From a virus (Duplodnaviria > Heunggongvirae > Uroviricota > Caudoviricetes): 19,417 bases of DNA. The position numbers and the translations under genes were made by a program. Below, piece by piece: positions 18,783 to 19,228 of this stretch; the first letter of the stretch is position 1; each line of letters starts with the position of its first letter. The stretch lies in IMG/VR virus record IMGVR_UViG_2690316241_000020; one strand, written 5' to 3'. Under the pieces are notes generated by a model that made no database searches, was not told the origin of the DNA, and saw nothing but the letters and a program-made list of their open reading frames with translations.

Positions 18783-18829
18783 AAAAAAAGAGCCAGCGAC
18801 TGACCTGAAAGAAGACGCTGGCTAAAAGG
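18783..18829 (-). other. Hairpin unit A (8-bp stem AGCCAGCG / CGCTGGCT, 17-nt loop), terminator-like on the minus strand
   Basis: Seven A on the plus strand precede the stem, giving a U-tract after the hairpin on the minus strand. Lies directly after the nanS-p stop. Confidence 0.4.
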
Positions 18830-18930
18830 CCTTATATGTTTGTAGAGACTTATTTTTCACAGACAGCAATGATGCCTGTCAATATATTATCAATATGCGG
18901 ATTGTTTCAGTTACAGATGCTTTATTAAGG

Positions 18931-18973
18931 AAAAAAACAGCCAGCACTGACTTTCGGTGGAGAGGTGCTGGCT
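18931..18973 (-). other. Hairpin unit B (9-bp stem AGCCAGCAC / GTGCTGGCT, 17-nt loop), a diverged copy of unit A
   Basis: Same architecture as unit A, 148 bp downstream, again with a 7-A run on the plus-strand 5' side. Confidence 0.4.
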
Positions 18974-19228
18974 CAGAAGGATAGTTGGATTTCACATGAT
19001 ACTTATGCCTGGCGGTATATTTTCTGACAGACAGTGACGGGTGTTGTCAAGATATTGTGTCATTTATAACCTGAATCAGGGGAGGCCGGAATGTTATCTG
19101 GCATTTTTAGCAGAGCCTGAATGCCATAATCACGGCTCCCGGAGTTGGCCGTCAGTGGGTGACACTGGCGGTTTTTTTGTTTTTCTTTACTTTCATTTTC
19201 TGTCGGCGGTGACGGAGACATACATCAG

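Follow-up and report, generated by a model that had tools for sequence, protein, structure and literature searches.

The window, by which we mean the whole stretch of 19,417 nucleotides analyzed here, belongs to a lambdoid prophage of E. coli and covers its regulatory and late region. Near its right end, an esterase gene and a holin gene are separated by a gap of 447 nt, and it is in this gap that the repeat units discussed below are found. We call unit A the one next to the esterase, and unit B the one next to the holin. The coordinates of all features are collected in Table 1.

Table 1. Features of the window around the esterase and holin genes, other structural RNAs in the window, and plasmid copies of unit A
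Feature	Position	Strand	Description	Basis
DicF	4454-4403	-		Rfam gathering score, 75.8 bits
sok (hok/sok module)	12735-12909	+		Rfam gathering score, 112.6 bits
STnc100	16532-16722	+	PasD-related short rightward transcript	Rfam gathering score, 146 bits
AgvB	16784-16723	-	anti-GcvB sRNA, perfect match	Rfam gathering score, 96.5 bits
nanS-p / SASA-family carbohydrate esterase gene	16931..18781	+	616 aa	ORF list; identical RefSeq DNA annotated 'SASA family carbohydrate esterase'
7-A run, unit A	18783-18789			sequence
Hairpin A	18791-18798 and 18816-18823		AGCCAGCG, 17-nt loop, CGCTGGCT	sequence
ACAGACAG block, unit A	18859-18866			sequence
TGTCAA, unit A	18877-18882		followed by TATATT	sequence
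Unit A small RNA	18783..18848	-	about 65 nt, EcOnc52-identical, diverged PasA/PasC paralogue	Tree 2014 coordinates, alignment, covariance model
Unit A intrinsic terminator	18783..18823	-	AGCCAGCG (18823->18816) / CGCTGGCT (18798->18791), then C and U7 (18790->18783)	sequence, fold, scan
Unit A promoter-like block	18852..18882	-	-35 TTGACA (18882->18877), 17-18-nt spacer, TGTGAAAAAT	sequence
7-A run, unit B	18931-18937			sequence
Hairpin B	18939-18947 and 18965-18973		AGCCAGCA(C), 17-nt loop, (G)TGCTGGCT	sequence
ACAGACAG block, unit B	19027-19034			sequence
TGTCAA, unit B	19045-19050		followed by GATATT	sequence
Unit B, PasA sRNA	18931..19015	-	85 nt (19015->18931)	coordinate transfer from NC_011601.1
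PasA terminator	18931..18973	-	AGCCAGCAC (18973->18965) / GUGCUGGCU (18947->18939), then G and U7 (18938->18931)	sequence, fold
PasA promoter-like block	19019..19050	-	-35 TTGACA (19050->19045), spacer, TGTCAGAAAAT	sequence
Terminator-like hairpin outside the repeat	19147..19185	+	11 pairs and a T-run	terminator scan; phage 434 equivalent annotated as terminator
Class II (S21-type) holin gene	19229..19417	+	truncated by the window end	sequence; RefSeq and phage annotations of matching DNA
Unit A copy, plasmid contig L128 (NZ_CP027444.1)	2501-2674
Unit A copy, plasmid NC_013369.1	12680-12830

At the Rfam gathering score, no family is reported within 18783-19090, and PasA, the RNA to which we assign unit B below, is absent from Rfam 15. 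When Rfam is used in E-value mode, the region gives snoRNA-type and TCV matches that we take to be chance (E-values 1.4-7.4). Elsewhere in the window the gathering score is reached by known structural RNAs, of which AgvB lies directly after STnc100 on the opposite strand. With STnc100 and AgvB on one side of the esterase gene, and PasA and EcOnc52 on the other, four sRNA genes flank it. The small open reading frames of the repeat region (26-38 aa) span terminators and spacers.

Two diverged units in tandem

An earlier description made from the letters alone (the sequence-only reading) had tandem diverged units lying between nanS-p and the holin, and two diverged direct repeats are what we find there. 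The run of seven As, the long-loop hairpin, the ACAGACAG block and the TGTCAA that it listed for each unit are all where it had placed them, with one correction to the letters: the block of unit A is CACAGACAG, and not GACAGACAG as it had been written. The terminators of the two units are 148-150 nt apart and the TGTCAA/ACAGACAG blocks 168 nt apart; thus, the units have different lengths.

On the minus strand, units A and B align with 72% identity over 109 aligned columns. In order to look for the family in the whole window, we used a covariance model (R1) built from 4 PasA and 6 PasC variants, with unit A left out. The best match is unit B, as PasA, with 90.6 bits, and the second best is unit A (18862-18785, minus strand), with 31.7 bits and an E-value of 2.4e-5. 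The next one has 15.4 bits (6819-6761, minus strand, E = 0.059); it is antisense within a 71-aa plus-strand open reading frame (6730-6945), and we discard it as chance. Unit A has the architecture of PasA and PasC, that is, a -35 TTGACA block, a short body, an AGCCAGC/GCTGGCT terminator and U7, with a shorter body (by about 15 nt) that aligns poorly.

Could two such units resemble each other by chance, or by low complexity, without there being any duplicated element? The exact blocks that they have in common are few and short, and a repeat finder reports them as separate families of 15-20 nt, which is how a chance similarity would look. Against this, the global alignment score of the two units has a z-score of 10.8 and is reached by none of 2000 dinucleotide shuffles, the R1 match to unit A has the E-value just given, the blocks come in the same order, and both units match experimentally detected RNAs. 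By these tests the chance explanation is refuted.

Terminators and putative promoters on the minus strand

The sequence-only reading had the hairpins acting as terminators on the minus strand only, and the terminator scan and the folds agree, the T-run being present on that strand alone. The hairpins themselves are stable on both strands, with fold z-scores from -3.4 to -4.6. The region has 4 terminator-like sites where 0.5 are expected, and the deposited annotation of phage 434 includes the same two minus-strand terminators, together with a plus-strand one just before the holin. Across the aligned units, 95% of the stem cells are paired, and there is one compensatory pair (G-C in the A and C types, A-U in the B type). 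The covariation in the hairpin rests on this single pair because the sequence variation is so low.

The minus strand of both units has AATAT(C/A)TTGACA, in which TTGACA is a perfect -35 hexamer, then 10 unrelated nt, then CTGTCTGT(C/G)A(G/A)AAA. In both units TTGACA and CTGTCTGTnAnAAA are found at the same spacing, while the 10 nt in between differ. The TGTCAA and GACAGACAG/CACAGACAG blocks are thus best read, from their letters and spacing, as a putative minus-strand -35 box and -10-proximal region rather than as plus-strand sites, and they would be the promoters of both units. In unit B, the first base of TTGACA is 35 nt from the published 5′ end of PasA (19015). Transferring this geometry to unit A predicts a transcription start at about 18847, and the EcOnc52 peak starts at 18848. 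The PasA promoter block has a fixed position, 77 nt upstream of the hairpin, in all B-type and in most C-type units.

The -10 elements are weak (TCAGAA/CAGAAA and TGAAAA/GAAAAA, in an A-rich -10 region). A scan for consensus promoters did not call either TTGACA promoter because these -10 boxes fail its rule. It did call another weak minus-strand candidate in unit A, CTGAAA-N18-TATATT, which we reject: its start would lie upstream of the EcOnc52 peak, and unit B has no equivalent.

Unit B is an allele of PasA

That the units may encode a pair of small RNAs had also been suggested from the sequence, and the comparison with published RNAs supports this. Unit B is an allele of PasA, and unit A has exactly the sequence of the Hfq-CRAC peak EcOnc52. 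What is shown directly, or by published experiments on identical or near-identical sequence, is that both units are the same as known Hfq-bound RNAs, where these RNAs have their 3′ ends, and where PasA has its 5′ end.

In EPEC E2348/69, the major form of PasA is an 85-nt RNA on the minus strand (NC_011601.1, 743499->743415), and a minor form of 236 nt has its 3′ end at 743264 (PMC8550237, Table S6). The window at 18760-19240 is colinear with NC_011601.1 743244-743724; therefore, PasA corresponds to 19015->18931, and the end of the minor form to the terminator of unit A. The probe used for the PasA northern blot, GCCAGCACTGACTTTCGGTGGAGAG (PMC8550237, Table S6), has an exact match at 18940-18964. 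Unit B shares with PasA of the E2348/69 prophage PP2 the position between a sialate esterase and a holin, the strand opposite to both, the length of 85 nt and the whole of the 3′ 45 nt (100% identical). The two are identical at 74 of 85 nt, and their 11 differences are linked SNPs, all in the first 40 nt.

PasA is northern-validated and Hfq-dependent or stabilized by Hfq in EPEC E2348/69 (PMC8550237), and it is widespread in EHEC and EPEC prophages. By RIL-seq in EPEC it has 41 trans partners, mostly core-genome mRNAs, and in the EPEC Hfq network it is the RNA with the 12th-highest number of interaction partners. The seed proposed for it is GCCAGCACCU (Pearl Mizrahi et al. 2021, Fig. S5, PMC8550237), which corresponds in the window to 18972->18963, on the 5′ side of the PasA terminator stem. 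A preprint states that a longer transcript may be processed to give the 5′ end of PasA (Zhu, Shabalina & Storz 2026 preprint). None of the papers that we found assigns a function to PasA or to EcOnc52.

A second published RNA points to the same unit. EcOnc51 is an orphan Hfq-CRAC peak in prophage Sp12 of Sakai (2237479-2237555, plus strand; PMC4104026, Table S2), and its sequence, extracted from the Sakai genome, matches the 3′ part of unit B with 100% identity. O157 Sakai Sp12 carries the unit B allele, which is probably the 'PasA-2' of the 2026 preprint. The patch at 18976-19014, which corresponds to the 5′ 40 nt of PasA and is mosaic or hypervariable, is probably what separates PasA from 'PasA-2' in that preprint.

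With respect to the long isoform, when the fold of the 233-nt read-through RNA (18783-19015, minus strand) is predicted, the arms of the PasA terminator pair with those of the unit A terminator and not with each other. The fold has a minimum free energy of -51.7 kcal/mol, and a z-score of only -1.4. If it forms, the seed may be hidden, or exposed differently, in the long isoform.

Unit A is EcOnc52

EcOnc52 is an orphan Hfq-CRAC peak in prophage Sp4 of Sakai (1181998-1182075, minus strand; PMC4104026, Table S2). Its sequence in the Sakai genome and that of unit A are 100% identical, from 18848 to beyond the T-run. For both EcOnc51 and EcOnc52 a Rho-independent terminator was predicted, and no northern blot was made (PMC4104026). 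The Hfq-CRAC areas of the two peaks are 1.03 M for EcOnc52 vs. 1.09 M for EcOnc51 (PMC4104026). In Sakai Sp4, IS629 takes the place of unit B, and unit A keeps its TTGACA block. The CRAC reads on this IS-separated copy may be multi-mapped, since several Sakai prophages hold identical copies. A literature search by the names EcOnc51 and EcOnc52 found no further papers.

In the EPEC RIL-seq data, the unit A region is the node pasA.E2348C_0688.IGR, with fragments at 743267-743294 (minus strand). The node is always RNA2 of its chimeras, has 5 partners and a U7 tract, and is in these respects sRNA-like. It has 119 fragments vs. 4983 for PasA under activating conditions, and 54 vs. 116 under non-activating conditions, so that the ratio of unit A to PasA goes from 1:42 to 1:2. 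Such a shifting ratio argues against a fixed fraction of read-through. We infer that unit A is independently transcribed.

The position equivalent to the PasA seed GCCAGCACCU reads GCCAGCGUCU in unit A, with 8/10 positions matching; the match to the equivalent in PasC, GCCAGCGUCC, is 9/10. The body of unit A includes CUCUACAAACAUAUAAGGCC. Having a seed-equivalent different from that of PasA, unit A should recognize other targets, and the prediction is of a target set different from PasA's, with AGACGCUGGC-like sites.

Alleles, distribution, and a possible origin of PasC

We have counted allele variation among 25 distinct tandem alleles. The number of variable columns is 1/50 for the unit A promoter and 2/50 for the PasA promoter, 1/28 for the unit A body, and 1/42 for the PasA terminator. 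In the PasA body there are 11 fully linked SNPs that define two haplotypes, found in 12 and 13 of the 25 alleles.

A scan of IMG/VR for the hairpin motif yields 61 intergenic regions between an esterase and a holin gene. Tandem units are present in 43 of them (485-490 nt), and the other 18 have a single unit of PasC type (333-335 nt), which makes the single-unit loci about 154 nt shorter. Phage 2B8 and prophage PP5 of E2348/69 also have a single unit each. These single-unit relatives indicate that the duplication is dispensable for a working lysis cassette. The sequence-only reading had offered the repeat as a duplicated regulatory site for lysis timing. We see no support for that proposal: the shared blocks are better read as parts of putative minus-strand promoters, and the relatives just listed have one unit.

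Between the promoter and a point just short of the hairpin, PasC loci match unit B, and from there on they continue with the unit A terminator and the esterase flank. PasC of E2348/69 PP5 has the same promoter block and a 5′ body like that of unit B, and, on the other hand, it has terminator arms and a seed-equivalent (GCCAGCGUC) like those of unit A, and, again like unit A, it directly adjoins the stop codon of the esterase gene. It differs in being a single unit, in the shorter intergenic region, in a shorter terminator loop, and in its 11-bp stem. PasC thus has the look of a chimera of B and A, and not of a third, separate lineage. Most simply, a deletion between the terminator repeats would have joined the promoter and body of unit B to the terminator of unit A, and we infer the direction of this event. 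One IMG/VR contig (L112) has PasA and unit A in tandem, the latter with the shorter terminator loop of PasC type, and it is likely to represent the parent type of PasC. Alternatively, going by the sequences, the tandem may have arisen by duplication from a PasC-like ancestor.

Each unit is also found without the other. Unit B occurs alone, and unit A is found alone, with its promoter, behind five different upstream junctions, including the IS629 of Sakai Sp4; the promoter block is kept in every mosaic that has unit A only. Unit A is also alone between IS elements on about 59 plasmids, with 93% identity (10 differences, most of them in the body and the terminator). The listed examples are mostly large plasmids of the EHEC virulence type (O26:H11 11368, O145:H28). 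In these plasmid copies the TTGACA block is intact and is accompanied by the last ~90 nt of the esterase gene, a G-C pair of the stem has become G-U, and the U-run is shortened.

Coliphage 434, a classical laboratory phage from Paris sewage of the 1950s, carries the whole locus of PasA and unit A with 95.9% identity (OL657226.1, L001 3501-3981). Thus, these 'pathogenicity-associated' sRNAs are not confined to the prophages of pathogens.

Two probable sRNA genes, and the alternatives

We consider it probable that the locus holds two tandem and independently equipped minus-strand sRNA genes, antisense to the phage late operon. Unit B is pasA, which would be transcribed from the TTGACA (19050->19045) promoter with a start at about 19015 and a stop at the hairpin and the U7 ending at 18931, and its product would be an 85-nt Hfq-dependent trans-acting sRNA that has its seed, GCCAGCACCU, within the 5′ terminator arm. 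Unit A is its diverged paralogue, EcOnc52, and would have a TTGACA promoter of its own (18882->18877), from which a transcript of about 65 nt would run to a terminator ending at 18783. The published 236-nt isoform would come about because the PasA terminator is leaky, and some transcripts reach the unit A terminator. Both genes would be 'morons', that is, self-contained modules of promoter, gene and terminator placed between late genes and expressed in the prophage, and their terminators would shield nanS-p from the antisense transcription. The terminator arms that they have in common would permit unequal recombination, with PasC most simply as one deletion product.

A first alternative is that unit B is the sole gene, and unit A a decayed duplicate that serves as a back-up terminator or 3′ extension for PasA read-through, with its TTGACA as a relic. 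This is how Pearl Mizrahi et al. read the region, with a minor 236-nt isoform ending at 743264 (PMC8550237), and under activating conditions the RIL-seq signal of unit A, at about 2% of PasA's, fits simple read-through. The -10 of unit A is weak and was missed by the promoter scan, and EcOnc52 comes without a northern blot (PMC4104026). On the other hand, a mere read-through tail accounts poorly for CRAC areas that are nearly equal for EcOnc52 and EcOnc51, or for a unit A to PasA ratio that moves 20-fold between conditions. Moreover, the promoter block of unit A hardly varies, and it stays in place wherever unit B is lost, by IS insertion or in the mosaics, and on the plasmids, and the EcOnc52 peak starts where a TTGACA-driven transcript should. 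We judge this alternative to be unlikely.

A different proposal is that the units act in cis on the late transcript, either by hairpins formed on the plus strand or by antisense pairing with the nanS-p-S mRNA, and in this way tune the holin and the timing of lysis. The hairpins do fold equally well on the plus strand (z-scores -4.6 and -3.8), the sRNAs are perfectly complementary to the late mRNA, and the RIL-seq sites with the PasA motif include 3′ ends of esterase genes. But the single-unit (PasC-type) and IS-inserted loci retain the same two flanking genes, esterase and holin, plasmids that lack any lysis genes still carry unit A, and the 41 trans partners of PasA are mostly core-genome mRNAs. 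Nor does the sequence of the window point to action on the prophage itself. The 8-mer GGTGCTGG, complementary to the core of the PasA seed, has 6 plus-strand occurrences (13737, 16306, 16440, 16455, 18751 and 18964), vs. 0.63 expected in dinucleotide shuffles, and none on the minus strand. Such an excess is, however, ordinary for lambdoid DNA: 0.7 Mb of related lambdoid sequence has 5.1 occurrences per 19.4 kb, a frequency close to that of Chi (GCTGGTGG), which also occurs 6 times in the window. Self-targeting of the prophage cannot be argued from this excess. RNAduplex predictions of the sRNAs against the 3′ end of nanS-p give long gapped duplexes that are uncalibrated, and we have set them aside as evidence. 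Altogether, we see very little probability for the cis proposal.

A more elaborate version of the two-gene reading goes further. The locus could be a PrrF-like cassette in which the terminator arms are recombination handles that shuffle promoter-and-body modules with terminator-and-seed modules, and in which the RNAs also feed back on their own late transcripts and influence the expression of the esterase and lysis genes after induction. We hold this to be rather improbable. If it were true, phages would generate new regulatory RNAs by module shuffling, and PasC would be one of the products.

Relation to known systems

Paralogous sRNA genes that lie next to each other, with a promoter and a terminator for each, are known from PrrF1/PrrF2 in P. 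aeruginosa and OmrA/OmrB in E. coli, and PrrH is the read-through product of PrrF1-PrrF2. The locus resembles the PrrF1/PrrF2 case in having adjacent paralogues and a published 236-nt read-through isoform, with a second gene that would have transcription of its own. The Pas pair differs from the PrrF and OmrA pairs in being far more diverged, with bodies that barely align and seed-equivalents that are not the same, and in its position in a phage late region. The concept of the phage moron, due to Hendrix and Juhala, describes self-contained promoter-gene-terminator modules that sit between lambdoid late genes and are expressed from the prophage. PasA and EcOnc52 share this type of module and its location with the prophage sRNAs AgvB and STnc100/PasD, which lie across the same esterase gene. 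AgvB is an anti-sRNA (a GcvB mimic), and mimicry of this kind is not known for PasA or EcOnc52.

The recent preprint on these RNAs places pasA and pasC between esterase and holin, proposes a common ancestor for them, cites PrrF1/PrrF2 and OmrA/OmrB as contrasts to pasA, and says that the copies of pasA do not lie in tandem (Zhu, Shabalina & Storz 2026 preprint). The diverged neighbor of pasA evidently falls below the BLAST filter of that work. Earlier, Pearl Mizrahi et al. had lumped EcOnc51 and EcOnc52 together as 'homologues of PasA' (PMC8550237). EcOnc51 and EcOnc52 were described as separate orphan peaks in different Sakai prophages, whereas in the window they are side by side at one locus.

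The locus is, then, an ordinary and already catalogued prophage sRNA locus (PasA/EcOnc51 and EcOnc52), and it is largely known. What is modestly new are two small additions: that pasA and EcOnc52 are diverged tandem paralogues, and that PasC is probably chimeric in origin. Recognition of the tandem pair changes how the copy number of pasA and its 'variants' should be counted. It also gives PasC a simple origin, as a recombinant between two terminators, and it brings into view a second sRNA, EcOnc52, with a different seed-equivalent, which is also carried alone on EHEC virulence plasmids.

Plus-strand features before the holin

Two observations concern the plus strand to the right of unit B. 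The strong terminator-like hairpin at 19147-19185 ends 44 nt 5′ of the holin start and is kept in both tandem and PasC-type loci; a weaker terminator-like site on the same strand (19085-19102) is 60 nt before it. These sites could stop transcripts that are not antiterminated ahead of the lysis genes, or they could define a plus-strand RNA.

The other observation is at 19044-19070, where TTGTCAA is near-palindromic, so that the plus strand reads TTGTCA and, 15 nt later, TATAAC. Judging from these letters, a weak promoter directed towards the holin, and diverging from that of PasA, may lie here; the promoter scan missed this pair of boxes because its spacer is too short.
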